This document shows positions 8,128 to 57,194 of a stretch of DNA of 59,085 nucleotides, one piece after another (the first letter of the stretch is position 1; the number at the start of each line of letters is the position of its first letter). Source of the DNA: a bacterium (lineage in GTDB: Bacteria > Patescibacteriota > Minisyncoccia > UBA6257 > GWB1-50-10); NCBI GenBank assembly GCA_021815205.1, contig JAKAHD010000005.1, positions 1 through 59,085 of the forward strand, read 5' to 3'. Below the pieces are notes generated by a model, which was not told the DNA's origin, made no database searches, and was given only the letters and a program-made list of their open reading frames with translations. The translations under genes were made by a program, and so were the position numbers.

Positions 8128-8227
8128 GTCATTCTGATCCCGAATCGCACCAAAGGAGAAGCACCTTAATGACGGCATACGCTAAGAAACGGGAGATCCT
8201 TCTCTCCCTACGGGAGATCAGAATGGC
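8128..8227. repeat. GTCATTCTGATC-type palindromic mini-element
   Basis: Termini GTCATTCTGATC ... GATCAGAATGGC. Internal hairpin TCTCCCTACGGGAGA. Intergenic. Confidence 0.8.
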
Positions 8228-12272: not shown

Positions 12273-12353
12273 GTCATTCTGATCTGCCGAAGGCAGAGAA
12301 GAATCTAACTCGTAACTAGAGATCCTTCTCCGCCAAAGGCGGATCAGGATGAC
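12273..12353. repeat. GTCATTCTGATC-type palindromic mini-element
   Basis: GTCATTCTGATC ... GATCAGGATGAC, with inner hairpins CTGCCGAAGGCAG and CCGCCAAAGGCGG. Confidence 0.8.
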
Positions 12354-44013: not shown

Positions 44014-44103
44014 GGTGGGGTGGCCGAGTGGTTTAAGGCGGTAGTCTTGAAAACTGCTGTGCCCGAAAGGGCACCGTGAGTTCGAATCTCACCCCCACCG
44101 CCA
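44014..44103 (+). tRNA. tRNA-Ser (TGA), with encoded CCA
   Basis: Acceptor GGTGGGG/CCCCACC, anticodon loop CTTGAAA, variable arm TGTGCCCGAAAGGGCACC, T-arm GTGAG-TTCGAAT-CTCAC. The last 8 nt belong to IR-C. Confidence 0.9.
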
Positions 44104-45597
44104 AAATTGAAAATCGGAATTGGAAGCCGAGATGGGGTCGCGCCGCAGGCGCGACACAAACGCATTCCCGCCAAAAATTCCCGAATCCAAAAGGTTTTTC
44201 CACGCTCCGCGTGGCTCAAAAAGTACGGTTCGATCCTTAATTTGAAAGTTCGAACCGACTTTTTTGAACAAATGAAGTTTTTCTTCATTTGTTCCCTCGT
44301 TTGCCAATTCCATATTGTATTTCAAAAACTTTTCGGTAAGTTCGAACCGATTATTCGCTTTTTGCTCAAAAGCCGATAATTTCTCTTTGAGAAGCTGTTT
44401 TGAGGCAACCAGCGCACTCTTGGCGTCACGATATTCTTCTAGCGAAAGTGCGCTCTCCAAATACGCATTCATCAGCTTCTCAATTTTGGAATCTAAAAGA
44501 GAAATTTCGGCTTTCGTAGAGTCTGCAAAAAGCGTAGAGGATTGGGCTTCACTCAATATATCTTTTCTATTTTCCGCTAACATCCAAGAAGCCCAATCGT
44601 CTGGCAAAGAAACTTTTTTGATTTCCTTTTGTATTTCGGAAGTGATGATTTCTTCGCGAGTATATTTTTGAGTACAAGGATTTTTCCGTTTGGTACATCG
44701 CAAATAGTTATGACCTTTTTGCGTTTCGGTGGTGATAAAGCAACCGCACTCGCCACAACGGAAAAATCCGCGATACAAAAATGGTTTCAAACCTCGCGAC
44801 TTCGGCTTAGATTTTCTCATCATCACTTCCTGAACGGAATCAAAAAGTTTCTTTGAAATAATCGGTTCGTGCTTGCCCTCAAAAATCTCTCCGTTATACC
44901 GCATTAGACCCGTGTAAATAGGATTTTTGAGAAGTTTTTGATAATTCGACACCGCAAGTTCCTTTCCGCTTTTTCGCTTCAATCCAAGCGCGTTAAATTT
45001 GTCGCGGAGTTCTCGCAAAGTGAAGTTTCCAGTGGAATATGCCTCAAATGTCTTTTTGATAAGAGGCGCGATATTCTCATCAGGCACGATTTGTTTGTTT
45101 TTGTTCACATAGCCAAGGGGCGACATTTGAGGCCATATTCCGTCCTTCACTTTGTTTCTATGTCCGCGCTTGATATTTTCACTTAGGTTGTCCACATAAT
45201 ACTTGGATTGCGAAAAAGCGATTGAAAGCATGAACTTGCCTTGCGGTGTCGGATCAAACCAAAAAGTTGGGAATTTCATTTCTGAAATTACGCCAGTATC
45301 AACGAGGTAGATGATTTTTCCGCCATCTACCGAGTTGCGAGCAAGTCTATCGGGATGCCACGCCAAAATACCAGTGGCTTCGCCTTTTTCCATTCTTTCC
45401 AACATCTCACCAAACACGGGGCGACCTGGTATTTTGGCGGTCTGCTTCTCGACAAAGACATCTATCACTTCCAGTTGTTCTTTCAACGCGAGTTCCTTTA
45501 ACTCCGAAAGTTGGTCAGAAATACTGCGGACTTGCCGGTCTTTGTCGTCCGTAGATTTGCGAGTATAGATGAAAAACTTTTTGGTTTGATTATTCAT
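44089..45597 (-). CDS. Large serine recombinase 2
   Basis: KFFIYTRKSTDD, HPDRLARN, zinc ribbon CGECGC...CTKRKNPC, and a coiled coil. Homologous to recombinase 1. The ATG at 45597 is preferred over the ORF-track start at 45714, which lies in IR-C'. The last ~40 codons lie in IR-C. Confidence 0.9.
   Translation of the reverse strand: MNNQTKKFFIYTRKSTDDKDRQVRSISDQLSELKELALKEQLEVIDVFVEKQTAKIPGRPVFGEMLERMEKGEATGILAWHPDRLARNSVDGGKIIYLVDTGVISEMKFPTFWFDPTPQGKFMLSIAFSQSKYYVDNLSENIKRGHRNKVKDGIWPQMSPLGYVNKNKQIVPDENIAPLIKKTFEAYSTGNFTLRELRDKFNALGLKRKSGKELAVSNYQKLLKNPIYTGLMRYNGEIFEGKHEPIISKKLFDSVQEVMMRKSKPKSRGLKPFLYRGFFRCGECGCFITTETQKGHNYLRCTKRKNPCTQKYTREEIITSEIQKEIKKVSLPDDWASWMLAENRKDILSEAQSSTLFADSTKAEISLLDSKIEKLMNAYLESALSLEEYRDAKSALVASKQLLKEKLSAFEQKANNRFELTEKFLKYNMELANEGTNEEKLHLFKKVGSNFQIKDRTVLFEPRGAWKNLLDSGIFGGNAFVSRLRRDPISASNSDFQFWRWG
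44096..44217. repeat. IR-C (122 bp)
   Basis: Reverse complement of 45617-45738 with 1 mismatch. Contains hairpin GGTCGCGCC-GCA-GGCGCGAC. Confidence 0.95.
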
Positions 45598-45616
45598 AAT
45601 TGTATTGGCAAACGAG

Positions 45617-45738
45617 GAGCCACGCGGAGCGTGGAAAAACCTTTTGGATGCGGGAATTTTTGGCGGGAATGCGTTTGTGTCGCGCCTGCGGCGCGACCCC
45701 ATCTCGGCTTCCAATTCCGATTTTCAATTTTGGCGGTG
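45617..45738. repeat. IR-C' (122 bp)
   Basis: Reverse complement of 44096-44217. Overlaps IR-D by CGGTG. Confidence 0.95.
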
Positions 45739-45946
45739 TGTATTGGACGAAGTTCGAATGTATTTCGGACAAAATCCGCAGGATTTTGACGAATGACACT
45801 TGCGCCTCGGCCGCGCTCGACAAGCTCGCGCGGGGCAAAACCCAAAAATTTCCTATCATTTTTATTAGCGGCTCCCCCCACACCCCCCGCCGCAAAGCGG
45901 AACATTTGAAAGGAAGGAAATTTTTGGGTTTGCCGCCGCCACTTCA
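45734..45946. repeat. IR-D (213 bp)
   Basis: Exact reverse complement of 52348-52560. Confidence 0.95.
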
Positions 45947-52347: not shown

Positions 52348-52560
52348 TGAAGTGGCGGCGGCAAACCCAAAAATTTCCTTCCTTTCAAATGTTCCGCTTT
52401 GCGGCGGGGGGTGTGGGGGGAGCCGCTAATAAAAATGATAGGAAATTTTTGGGTTTTGCCCCGCGCGAGCTTGTCGAGCGCGGCCGAGGCGCAAGTGTCA
52501 TTCGTCAAAATCCTGCGGATTTTGTCCGAAATACATTCGAACTTCGTCCAATACACACCG
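52348..52560. repeat. IR-D' (213 bp)
   Basis: Exact reverse complement of 45734-45946. Confidence 0.95.
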
Positions 52561-52616
52561 CTCTATATTAAAACTTGTCATGCCGAAGGCATCTTCCCTT
52601 CCGTAAAATAAAATCT

Positions 52617-56209: not shown

Positions 56210-56297
56210 TGGTGCCTGGGGTGGGAATCGAACCCACACGAGGAAACTCCTCACGACATTTTAAGTGTCGGCTGTCTACCAGTTTCAGCACCCAGGC
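56210..56297 (-). tRNA. tRNA-Leu (TAA), with encoded CCA
   Basis: Acceptor GCCTGGG/CCCAGGC, anticodon stem-loop CGACA-CTTAAAA-TGTCG, long variable arm, T-arm GTGGG-TTCGATT-CCCAC. Confidence 0.9.
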
Positions 56298-56313
56298 GTT
56301 GTTTCTGTTTTTG

Positions 56314-56434
56314 AGGCCGTGGCGGGAATCTCATACCTATGGTAGATCTCCCGAAGGGAGAGAACCCACGTATAAGGGTTTTGTCTCTCTTCGGGGGATC
56401 TCCCGAAGGGAGACAGACCTCCGCCCCTGAGGCC
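56314..56434 (-). pseudogene. tRNA-Cys-like copy with two hairpin inserts and a replaced 5' third
   Basis: Removing 56331-56361 (T-loop, between C56 and G57) and 56384-56413 (anticodon, between G34 and C35) restores GGTCTGCAAAACCCTTATACGTGGGTTCGATTCCCGCCACGGCCT. That sequence is identical to the intact gene. Confidence 0.7.
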
Positions 56435-56516
56435 TAGACCGGAGTTGAACCGGTGAATAGTGGTTTTGTCATGCCTACGGTAGATCCCCCGTAGGGGGAC
56501 AGACCACTTGAGGCCG
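56431..56516 (-). pseudogene. Degenerate tRNA-like copy with a 31-nt anticodon insert
   Basis: GGCCTCAAGTGGTCTG [insert 56469-56499] CAAAACCAC TATTC ACCGG-TTCAACT-CCGGT CTAGGCC. The D-arm is missing. Confidence 0.55.
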
Positions 56517-56582
56517 TGGCGGGAATCGAACCCACGTATAAGGGTTTTGCAGACCCTTGCCTTACCACTTGGCTACACGGCC
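56511..56582 (-). tRNA. tRNA-Cys (GCA)
   Basis: Acceptor GGCCGTG/CACGGCC, anticodon stem-loop AGGGT-CTGCAAA-ACCCT, T-arm GTGGG-TTCGATT-CCCGC. Confidence 0.85.
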
Positions 56583-56821
56583 TTATATTTCTCTTTTAAC
56601 ATCTCCTTCTGTTGTCCAGTTTTGTAAAATAACTCAGCTCTTACCGCCTCTCGCCTTGTCTGATATTCGATCGAATCGAGTAATTTCCATGGGCGATATC
56701 CTTTCGTCGATTTTACCTTTCCGGAGTTATGTTTTGCAACCCGCACCTTAACATTCTCTGTGCTCCCTACGTAGATATCTCCATTTTTTAAGCTCTTCAG
56801 AAAGTATACAAAGTACGTCAT
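56573..56821 (-). CDS. GIY-YIG domain protein (82 aa)
   Basis: YFVYFLKSLKNGDIYVGSTENVKVRVAKHNSGKVKSTKGYRPWKL. The stop codon lies inside the first 10 nt of tRNA-Cys. No obvious RBS. Confidence 0.75.
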   Translation of the reverse strand: MTYFVYFLKSLKNGDIYVGSTENVKVRVAKHNSGKVKSTKGYRPWKLLDSIEYQTRREAVRAELFYKTGQQKEMLKEKYKAV

Positions 56822-56897
56822 GGTGGTTTTGTCATGCCTGCGGCAGATCCCCCGTAGGGGGACAGACCCCTCCCTTAACCACTTGGGTATGGCGCCA
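56822..56897 (-). pseudogene. tRNA 5' half (Cys-like) with a 31-nt anticodon insert, truncated by the GIY-YIG gene
   Basis: GGCGCCA TA CCCAAGTGGTTAAGGGA G GGGTCTG [insert 56832-56862] CAAAACCACC, then the ATG of the GIY-YIG gene. No matching 3' acceptor strand was found. Confidence 0.6.
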
Positions 56898-57194
56898 TTA
56901 CGCTCCTCCCTTGGAAACTATTTCAAACTTGAGGCGGGGCATCGGTTTTACGTTCAGCTTCTTCAAGAGCTCATGCTCAAGCTCCCGCTTCCGTACTTCC
57001 ACTATTGTATATGCTTCGAGTTCTTTTTCAAATGGGATGATGCCGAGCTTCACGCGTGCCTCCTCGAACTTCTCGTCCACGGCAACATCGAGAATGGTGA
57101 CGAGCGCGCCGTTGAAATTGAATTCACGCACAAAAAGCCTGCTCAGTTCCTCCTGAATCACACTTGCCATTTTGAGATTTCGGAACGGACGCAT
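56898..57194 (-). CDS. rbfA: Ribosome-binding factor A
   Basis: NLKMASVIQEELSRLFVRE...VTILDVAVDEKFEEARV is a typical RbfA N-terminus. Located downstream of infB. Confidence 0.8.
   Translation of the reverse strand: MRPFRNLKMASVIQEELSRLFVREFNFNGALVTILDVAVDEKFEEARVKLGIIPFEKELEAYTIVEVRKRELEHELLKKLNVKPMPRLKFEIVSKGGA

Follow-up and report, generated by a model that had tools for sequence, protein, structure and literature searches.

The closest described relative of the arrangement discussed here is SegB, a GIY-YIG homing endonuclease encoded in the tRNA gene clusters of T-even phages, which cuts tRNA genes, recognises a motif of the T arm and carries flanking tRNA genes along when it homes (PMC2330249). 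SegB also drives a recombination-dependent segmental amplification that yields repeated tRNA segments (PMC13096335). A second point of reference is provided by the RAYT genes, which are flanked by their own repetitive extragenic palindromic (REP) repeats or REPIN doublets and whose family-specific association with these repeats suggests coevolution (PMC3337134; PMC3116915). The subject of this analysis is a locus on contig JAKAHD010000005.1 (assembly GCA_021815205.1; the whole stretch of 59,085 nucleotides is called the window), in which a small GIY-YIG nuclease gene, an intact tRNA-Cys gene, three interrupted tRNA-Cys copies and four palindromic inserts (PAL) are packed between rbfA and tRNA-Leu(UAA). 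We consider it fairly probable that this locus is one copy of a selfish nuclease-tRNA-Cys cassette with cognate palindromes, which is common in Patescibacteria (Candidate Phyla Radiation, CPR). In a survey of rRNA insertions in CPR bacteria, GIY-YIG comes up solely inside such insertions, and no description of the GIY-YIG/tRNA-Cys module or of the PAL palindrome in CPR bacteria was found in the full-text literature searched.

Every part of the locus lies on the minus strand, and the coordinates and sequences given in the earlier note were confirmed base for base. Upstream stands rbfA (56898..57194; Pfam RBFA), a frequent conserved upstream neighbour of tRNA-Cys in Patescibacteria; the T at 56897 is a spacer after its stop codon and lies outside the first tRNA piece. 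This piece, fragment A (56863..56896, GGCGCCATACCCAAGTGGTTAAGGGAGGGGTCTG), comprises positions 1-34 of a resident tRNA-Cys allele with the acceptor strand GGCGCCA. It is followed by PAL-A (56832..56862), a 31-bp double palindrome between G34 and C35, a site that is filled in 54 other loci, and then by CAAAACCACC (56822..56831), the 3' side of an anticodon loop and stem (positions 35-44), which mismatches the stem of fragment A and belongs to a different allele. The stand-alone nuclease gene (56573..56821) encodes an SLX1/UPF0213-like protein of 82 aa with Gly in position 69 (Pfam PF01541, E=7e-14). Its TAG stop codon forms U8-A9-G10 of the intact tRNA-Cys(GCA) gene (56511..56582), the sole functional copy, which is called by ARAGORN and by Rfam (69 bits); the overlap between the stop codon and the tRNA had been recognised before.

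Beyond the intact gene, the spacer CAAGTGGTCTG (56500..56510) combines flanking sequence with the 5' strand of the anticodon stem and the CTG of fragment C. PAL-C (56469..56499), a 31-bp double palindrome that differs from PAL-A in 2 bases, occupies G34^C35 of this fragment, and the rest of fragment C (56429..56468) corresponds to positions 35-76 of a second tRNA-Cys allele with the acceptor strand CTAGGCC. Fragment D opens with AGGGGCGGAGGTCTG (56414..56428), a degenerate remnant of the D arm and anticodon stem, and is interrupted twice: PAL-D1 (56384..56413), a 30-bp near-perfect palindrome, sits at G34^C35, and PAL-D2 (56331..56361), a 31-bp double palindrome, sits in the T loop (C56^G57), a site also filled in L043, L074 and L131 (L numbers denote related loci). 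The tRNA stretches that remain, positions 35-56 (56362..56383) and 57-73 (56314..56330), have the same bases as the intact gene, and once the two inserts are taken out fragment D matches positions 34-72 of that gene exactly. Starts of the AAGGAGGC..GGTCTG kind, similar to the opening of fragment D, are present in many loci. The locus is closed by tRNA-Leu(UAA) (56213..56297; ARAGORN, Rfam), the usual downstream neighbour of the module, which trails it in many loci.

The direct repeat that had been reported to bracket the ORF (open reading frame) and the intact tRNA is indeed present, with a length of 52 nt and 92% identity (56457-56508 and 56820-56871) instead of 46 bp. The 82-aa GIY-YIG gene is the sole ORF between the two repeats, and an integrase gene is absent there. 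Over the window, the hairpin pattern has 6 occurrences compared with 0.12 expected by chance. Assembly error in this repeat-dense locus had been named as a possible refutation; however, the 755-bp interval is identical in the NCBI metagenome-assembled genome GCA_027423925.1, in an ENA assembly and in a Logan assembly, and as these three assemblies are independent the locus is not an assembly artefact.

Several lines of evidence support the cassette reading. The first is the recurrence of the whole module. A scan for the PAL pattern, which covered one genome per species, returned 43 loci, nearly all of them from Patescibacteria and from many classes (Saccharimonadia, Paceibacteria, Yanofsky-, Doudna-, Kaiser-, Jorgensen- and Berkelbacteria), and 10 of the 43 adjoin a homologous GIY-YIG ORF in the same arrangement as in the window. 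L005 and L046 belong to Saccharibacteria. A metagenome scan with the GIY-YIG alignment detected 330 relatives, and the best 80 loci among them were retained. The layout they share consists of a tRNA-Cys 5' fragment with a palindrome, the GIY-YIG ORF, an intact tRNA-Cys, 3' fragments with palindromes and tRNA-Leu. An intact tRNA-Cys(GCA) follows 88 of 93 homologous ORFs, with a gap of -22 to +24 nt (2 of the 93 reach the contig end), and a perfect double triloop hairpin lies within 130 nt upstream of the ORF in 64/90. Because the ORF usually ends inside the tRNA, either with the TAG of U8-A9-G10 or with a TAA in the D loop, the proteins have C-termini such as ...KYGLVAKW. Among the 72 distinct loci with enough upstream sequence, 60 have tRNA-Cys 5' homology of at least 30 nt before the ORF; in 54 loci a long insert occupies G34^C35, and about 19 of the 72 have one in the D loop. 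In many loci 3' fragments lie past the intact gene, where they start with ..GGTCTG and continue with a palindrome and then CAAAACC, and some of them carry a T-loop palindrome as well. The right-hand PAL is missing in about half of the modules, and at least 34 loci have rbfA together with infB upstream. The earlier note had regarded the hairpin as a coloniser of pseudogenes; it is not an unrelated one, being a conserved part of the module across Patescibacteria.

The second line of evidence is a covariation between nuclease and palindrome. The residue concerned, 69, is the G of K-T-G-Q-Q-K-E in the window protein, and PAL arms are called GC-type when arm position 5 is G (..NGC-loop-GCN..) and CC-type when it is C. 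All 15 loci with GC-type arms have His69 and none has Gly69, whereas Gly69 is found in 30 of the 31 loci with CC-type arms and His69 in 1 of them (Fisher p=3e-11). The one exception is L086, and a GC-type palindrome is present elsewhere in that locus. When all 15-bp units in the modules are counted, Gly69 loci contain 112 CC-type and 3 GC-type units and His69 loci contain 4 and 56, respectively; the PALs of a module share the type of the local nuclease whether they are located in the D, anticodon or T loop. The mean protein identity is 64% within residue-69 types versus 62% between types, His-type proteins occur at no fewer than 8 separate places in the neighbour-joining tree, and both characters are switched in close pairs (L070 versus L073/L109 at a distance of 0.13-0.17, L078 versus L107 at 0.19). 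Comparison of arm positions 2, 3 and 4 with the protein residues gave a best p of ~1e-3, which is lost under multiple testing. If the protein read the palindrome directly, such covariation would be expected, and from the sequences PAL would appear to be the cognate DNA recognition site of the cassette nuclease. A hairpin unrelated to the GIY-YIG gene does not accord with a stem sequence that covaries with one residue of the adjacent protein.

These two results bear directly on an explanation close to the one that had originally been put first, according to which tandem duplicates of tRNA-Cys decayed to pseudogenes that a common CPR repeat then colonised, with the GIY-YIG gene present by coincidence. 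It is true that the fragments are non-functional and that hairpins resembling PAL are present at other places of the window and in further genomes. Coincidence, however, does not provide for ORFs so regularly fused to tRNA-Cys and preceded by its 5' fragment (the 88/93 and 60/72 given above), for a PAL type that tracks a residue of the adjacent protein, or for fragments of different allelic origin. The recurrence and covariation statistics already contradict unrelated decay, and we regard it as very improbable.

What are the interrupted copies? The earlier note had called them degenerate copies; they are interrupted and non-functional, as had been judged probable, but they are not whole genes with inserts. 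They represent one 5' fragment (positions 1-43) and two 3' fragments (from about 27 to 76). After exact removal of all four inserts ARAGORN still calls only the intact tRNA-Cys and tRNA-Leu, and no tRNA was obtained from A with its downstream sequence, from C alone, from D alone, or from A joined to C or to D, which confirms that the copies are non-functional alone and in trans. The acceptor halves, GGCGCCA in A, CTAGGCC in C and CACGGCC in D, are mismatched. The question of whether the inserts are processed, which had been left undecided, is moot because every interrupted copy lacks a large part of the tRNA.

It follows that little room remains for the view that the inserts represent short bacterial tRNA introns of a novel type and that the copies, alone or in trans, give a functional tRNA-Cys. 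The inserts do occupy fixed loop positions and their stems do covary, and in the known cases (archaeal bulge-helix-bulge introns, split tRNAs and bacterial group I introns) extra sequence is likewise found in the anticodon loop or another tRNA loop, or tRNA halves are found at separate places. The differences are nevertheless numerous. The copies are incomplete after insert removal and their acceptor halves mismatch in all trans-combinations; one site holds both insert orientations; G-U pairs are nearly absent and the loops have dyad polarity; and an intact tRNA-Cys always stands alongside the fragments. Rfam, searched over the locus at gathering and E-value thresholds, returned the two intact tRNAs and chance microRNA-like hairpins only, and no intron or ribozyme was matched in the interval at E up to 10. 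By eye, the TG/CA flanks of the inserts prolong the helix instead of making bulges. Insert excision produced a new tRNA in 0/44 instances, on which ground the intron reading was dropped; we hold it to be scarcely credible.

Related loci, reached via RbfA homologues and their contigs, indicate how the fragments could have come together. In L055 and L057, whose RbfA proteins are 79% and 76% identical to that of the window, the rbfA stop codon is followed by a single clean tRNA-Cys, and no ORF, fragments or PAL are present at the rbfA/tRNA-Cys site. Fragment A occupies the place of this single tRNA-Cys, and TCAAGTG, a part of the window spacer after tRNA-Cys, also trails tRNA-Cys in L055. Of the two origins that had been offered for the bracketed arrangement, duplication or cassette insertion, the empty site supports the insertion. 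L061/L062 (RbfA 69%) are occupied and have the layout of the window, with an insert that is diverged in sequence yet palindromic. Moreover, the pieces of the window locus resemble different relatives: fragment A matches the intact tRNA-Cys of L059 in 33/34 bases, fragment C matches that of L061 in 40/40 bases, and the intact gene and fragment D resemble the allele of L055/L057. Since the pieces match three tRNA-Cys alleles, each intact in a relative, the locus can be described as a stack of leftovers from successive tRNA-Cys replacements, and local duplication alone does not account for the fragments.

The same comparison yielded two observations on the surroundings. In L059/L060 (RbfA 75%) a LAGLIDADG-type ORF (L059 2884-3555, L060 1068-1814) lies between rbfA and an intact tRNA-Cys, in the spot taken by the GIY-YIG cassette in the window, and no tRNA fragments stand beside it. 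On the def side, L049, L051 and L053 have the order def, tRNA-Leu(UAA), tRNA-Arg(GCG), not tRNA-Cys; given this order in relatives, the junction between tRNA-Leu and the tRNA-Cys module in the window is a rearrangement boundary. Synteny on that side is uninformative, as tRNA-Leu is followed by tRNA-Arg or other genes in relatives and the side is rearranged.

The palindrome itself has a strict architecture. From the 54 distinct inserts collected between CTG and CAAA, 38 are 30 nt long and have the form TCNNNC-TNC-GNNNGA TCNNNC-GNA-GNNNGA, that is, two 15-bp triloop units, with TNC as the first loop in 37/38 and GNA as the second in 35/38. Folded as two hairpins, 99.3% of the stem cells pair, a value that no shuffle of 500 reached; folding as one long 15-bp hairpin, in which 84% are paired, was rejected. 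Of the 12 stem pairs 8 change on both sides, with 71 compensatory cells and 3 G-T pairs only, and 31-nt variants occur in both orientations at one tRNA position. Strict Watson-Crick pairing, the dyad polarity of the loops and the indifference to orientation argue for selection on the double-stranded or cruciform DNA and not on a transcript, and from the sequence data they point to PAL as a DNA-level element. The site preference ascribed to the hairpin in the earlier note stands and can be extended: besides G34^C35 and the D loop, at the frequencies given above, PAL is found in T loops, and it is nested in other PALs at the fixed positions CGG^GAGA and TCTC^CCG. There is no target consensus beyond a tendency to ^CAA or ^GA and to hairpin tips. 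About 30 of the 43 pattern matches are intergenic and outside tRNA genes, with several per genome. By this distribution PAL resembles an insertion element. No PAL was found in IMG/VR viral contigs, and there is no sign of a phage vector.

PAL-type units are also present elsewhere in the window. A solitary intergenic 15-bp unit, TCTCCCTACGGGAGA, lies at 8203..8217 on the plus strand inside a repeat copy of about 31 nt (8190-8225), and related units at 12283-12297 and 12329-12343 lie inside further such copies (12275-12305 and 12318-12352). The three intergenic copies have the structure GATCCTTC-[TCNNCC-NNN-GGNNGA]-TCAGRATG, and one of them is inverted. A common non-tRNA context of PAL, GACAATTT^CAAGTTTTTCTTTGGCGGCA, is shared by L011, L018, L023 and L032 from four genomes; one of them comes from a bin labelled Gammaproteobacteria, in which it is probably a misplaced CPR contig.

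The dispersal of PAL makes it necessary to consider that it is a miniature mobile palindrome comparable to REP sequences, with the GIY-YIG protein as its transposase that excises it and pastes it into hairpin tips. The tRNA-Cys loops would then be the nearest targets, and ORF plus tRNA would be the autonomous partner bracketed by PALs. This explanation overlaps with the cassette reading, and its core activity is PAL transposition instead of homing by tRNA homology. It draws on the intergenic copies, on the nesting at fixed positions, on the structure of PAL, in which two 15-bp units with polar loops stand head to head, on the nuclease type shared by all PALs of a module, and on a nuclease gene that is flanked by PAL and coevolves with it, as RAYT genes do with REPINs (PMC3337134). 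On the other hand, a target consensus is nearly absent, PALs far from the module mismatch the type of the local nuclease, and about half of the modules do without the right-hand PAL. A further count against it is that we know of no GIY-YIG DNA transposase in prokaryotes. We rate this alternative as unlikely, though it is the strongest of those considered.

The window protein scores 52.3 bits against PF01541 (cut-off 22.6). Of its catalytic residues, Y6, R27, H31, N32 and E63 show no variation across 24 homologues, and conservation of Y17 is at least 90%. The protein is a catalytic domain only, and all 161 detected homologues are about 80-110 aa long and 57-77% identical. Its nearest solved sequences are the UPF0213 proteins BH0048 (1zg2, E=5e-7) and EF2693, followed by Slx1. 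The predicted structure has the alpha/beta fold of the GIY-YIG superfamily. In Foldseek searches with the AlphaFold2 model (predicted local distance difference test, pLDDT, 92), BH0048, Slx1 and At-HIGLE match better than the N-terminal domains of I-TevI or UvrC, the Slx1 match having a template modelling (TM) score of 0.65-0.75 at 28-31% identity. The titles of the matched entries describe Slx1 as cutting branched and hairpin-like DNA, an activity that suits a palindromic or cruciform substrate, and by this analogy the SLX1-like nuclease probably acts on hairpin or cruciform DNA. The likeness has its limits: Slx1 has a RING domain and partners with Slx4, and for UPF0213 proteins, to our knowledge, no sequence-specific site, tRNA linkage or mobility has been described.

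The history of the nuclease gene appears to differ from that of its host. Over a span of RbfA identity from 24% to 69%, GIY-YIG homologues remain at a flat 58-70% identity to the window protein; the two do not correlate over 34 loci (Spearman rho -0.01), the result against IF2 is the same, and the identities of RbfA and IF2 correlate with each other. L061, the closest occupied relative, has one of the less similar nucleases (63%), and this is of the other residue-69 type. Together with the empty sites, the flat identity favours gain, loss and transfer of the nuclease gene, as far as sequence comparison can tell.

These data also bear on the question of whether the module could be a host operon, in which GIY-YIG is a vertically inherited repair nuclease co-transcribed with tRNA-Cys, the upstream tRNA fragment serves as promoter and leader, PAL is an operator for self-repression and the fragments are neutral by-products of duplication. 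In most loci PAL does lie 5-30 nt upstream of the start codon, the synteny of infB, rbfA and the module is kept across deep lineages, and covariation between protein and site is equally expected for a repressor and its operator; I-TevI, another GIY-YIG enzyme, represses its own gene. Vertical inheritance, however, is at odds with the lack of the gene at this site in close relatives and with a GIY-YIG divergence uncoupled from host divergence. An operator role leaves unexplained the PALs downstream of the tRNA, those in the T and D loops of fragments and the nested ones, and duplication by-products would not derive from different tRNA-Cys alleles. As a whole this explanation seems to us improbable, although PAL might act instead, or additionally, as a self-repression operator.

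Returning to the cassette reading, its steps can be outlined as follows. The cassette joins a minimal GIY-YIG gene to a complete tRNA-Cys gene at the 5' end of the latter, and this unit sits within the remains of resident tRNA-Cys genes, with palindromes of the nuclease's type at the breakpoints. It would have landed in the resident tRNA-Cys just downstream of rbfA and split it, so that the 5' part of the resident gene (fragment A) stays upstream of the nuclease gene, and fragments C and D, 3' parts that stem from earlier tRNA-Cys alleles, are pushed downstream. The tRNA-Cys of the cassette would compensate for the destroyed resident gene, keep the cell viable and penalise cassette loss. As for the transfer mechanism, we infer that the nuclease would bind or cut at PAL and that the breaks would drive recombination between tRNA-Cys repeats, through which other tRNA-Cys genes would receive copies of the cassette, the conserved tRNA sequence serving as portable homology in the manner of phage SegB. 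The activity of the nuclease may also seed PAL into the hairpin tips of nearby tRNA fragments and yield tandem fragments.

Several points weigh against this reading. First, PAL is located on the occupied allele and is absent from the empty one, which is the opposite of classical homing; the reading does not account for the first invasion of a PAL-free tRNA-Cys gene, nor for the escape of the resident intact tRNA-Cys from cutting. Second, the protein has no separate DNA-binding domain. Third, the window fragments do not fit one simple insertion, and several rounds must therefore be assumed. Fourth, near-identical cassettes in different flanks were not found: all cores with 100% identity share their flanks, and only the L123/L129 cores (94%) differ downstream. 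The flat identity of 58-70% could, moreover, reflect constraint and saturation instead of transfer. Finally, two reservations concern the covariation: the tree of an 80-aa protein is weakly resolved, which leaves the number of independent Gly/His switches uncertain, and in His-type loci CC-type prevails, by 8 to 2, among the PAL units located over 200 nt from the module, from which it follows that dispersed PALs do not all depend on the local nuclease.

Some loci suggest a wider family. In L039 (1380-1935) a distant GIY-YIG paralogue ends in the TAG of a tRNA-Phe 5' fragment with the acceptor strand GCCGAGG; an intact tRNA-Phe comes next, flanked by the 14-nt inverted repeat TTTCATACAAATGC, and is followed by a 3' fragment with a T-loop PAL, whose acceptor strand CCTCGGC pairs with the 5' fragment. 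As the acceptor halves match across the incoming copy, it was this copy that split the resident tRNA-Phe. In L038 (99-445) another distant GIY-YIG paralogue precedes tRNA-Trp by 3 nt, and a PAL is located about 770 nt off. Given these tRNA-Phe and tRNA-Trp cases, the theme probably extends beyond tRNA-Cys. In L096, L117, L123, L134 and L140 a second ORF family stands right after the tRNA-Cys of the module; its N-terminus has the pattern M.KR.WTE.QL..AV..S.S.R.VL..LGL..AGGNY..IKK, and it may be another endonuclease-like gene.

A bolder formulation would join all of these aspects: an 82-aa SLX1-like nuclease reads a 15-bp triloop palindrome via one position (Gly69 with C:G, His69 with G:C) and mobilises PAL doublets into the tips of tRNA hairpins and into each other, as well as a cassette that destroys and replaces the host tRNA-Cys. 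The result would be an addiction module with relatives on tRNA-Phe and tRNA-Trp and a kind of mobile DNA that has so far gone unrecognised. This formulation we put forward as tentative and rather doubtful in its entirety.

Outside the locus, the window contains a 541-aa ORF (44089-45714, minus strand) that begins in the way typical of large serine recombinases. On either side of it stand inverted repeats of 122 nt and 99% identity (44096-44217 and 45617-45738), the left arm of which abuts tRNA-Ser(UGA) (44014-44103), and the segment 44089-45738 is possibly invertible or mobile. A perfect 214-nt inverted repeat (45733-45946 and 52348-52561) brackets about 6.4 kb and adjoins the recombinase element.

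What does the module mean for the genomes that carry it? On the practical side, it explains a recurrent pattern in CPR assemblies, namely tRNA-Cys fragments and small genes annotated as 'GIY-YIG nuclease family protein' at contig breaks, and it warns that such fragments should not be annotated as intron-bearing or split tRNAs. If the covariation reflects direct reading, it would present a very small nuclease with a switchable specificity, in which one residue corresponds to one base pair. The module further suggests how selfish DNA can hold on in minimal genomes, namely by swapping a single-copy essential tRNA gene for a linked copy, and it provides a mechanism by which tRNA-Cys alleles could change rapidly between close relatives. 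With it, the association of GIY-YIG enzymes and tRNA genes that SegB exemplifies in phages reaches bacterial chromosomes as well.

Compared with SegB of phages T4/T6, the likeness lies, besides the carrying along of tRNA genes and the amplification named at the outset, in the following aspects: a GIY-YIG gene is located between tRNA genes and outside any intron or intein; its presence is polymorphic between relatives (here L055/L057 are empty and the window and L061 are occupied); and SegB targets a conserved stem-loop sequence of tRNA genes. There are differences as well. SegB is a phage protein of roughly 220 aa with a DNA-binding part and a site of about 27 bp, whereas the CPR protein has 82 aa, is a catalytic domain only and is chromosomal; its gene is bound to that of a single isoacceptor, to the 5' end of which it is fused; and the coevolving 30-bp palindrome of the CPR module is absent from SegB systems. 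With respect to I-TevI, the window protein is structurally nearer to Slx1/UPF0213. A tandem array of a 3' fragment, AAGGGTTGTAGGTCTG and PAL, which lies downstream of tRNA-Cys in L137, recalls the segmental amplification of the SegB type (PMC13096335).

With REP/REPIN sequences and RAYT genes the module shares short palindromes that form head-to-head doublets with central bases marking polarity, the dispersal of the repeats in intergenic DNA and a cognate nuclease gene flanked by repeats. In contrast, RAYTs are HUH/Y1 enzymes related to IS200 and the enzyme here is of the GIY-YIG type, PAL measures 30 bp instead of 70-110 bp and has no GTAG or CGTC tag, and it goes into the loops of tRNA genes; the gene of the enzyme is joined to a tRNA gene. 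Certain integrative elements with tyrosine integrases also have tRNA genes as their targets: they likewise land in the anticodon or T loop, provide a replacement for the disrupted part of the tRNA and leave displaced fragments as direct repeats. In the present case an integrase is absent, the payload amounts to about 330 bp only, the tRNA provided is whole and not just a 3' part, and palindromes occupy the junctions. Taken together, the module may belong to a known kind, the free-standing GIY-YIG endonucleases linked to tRNA genes, and its coevolving palindrome may be new in kind.

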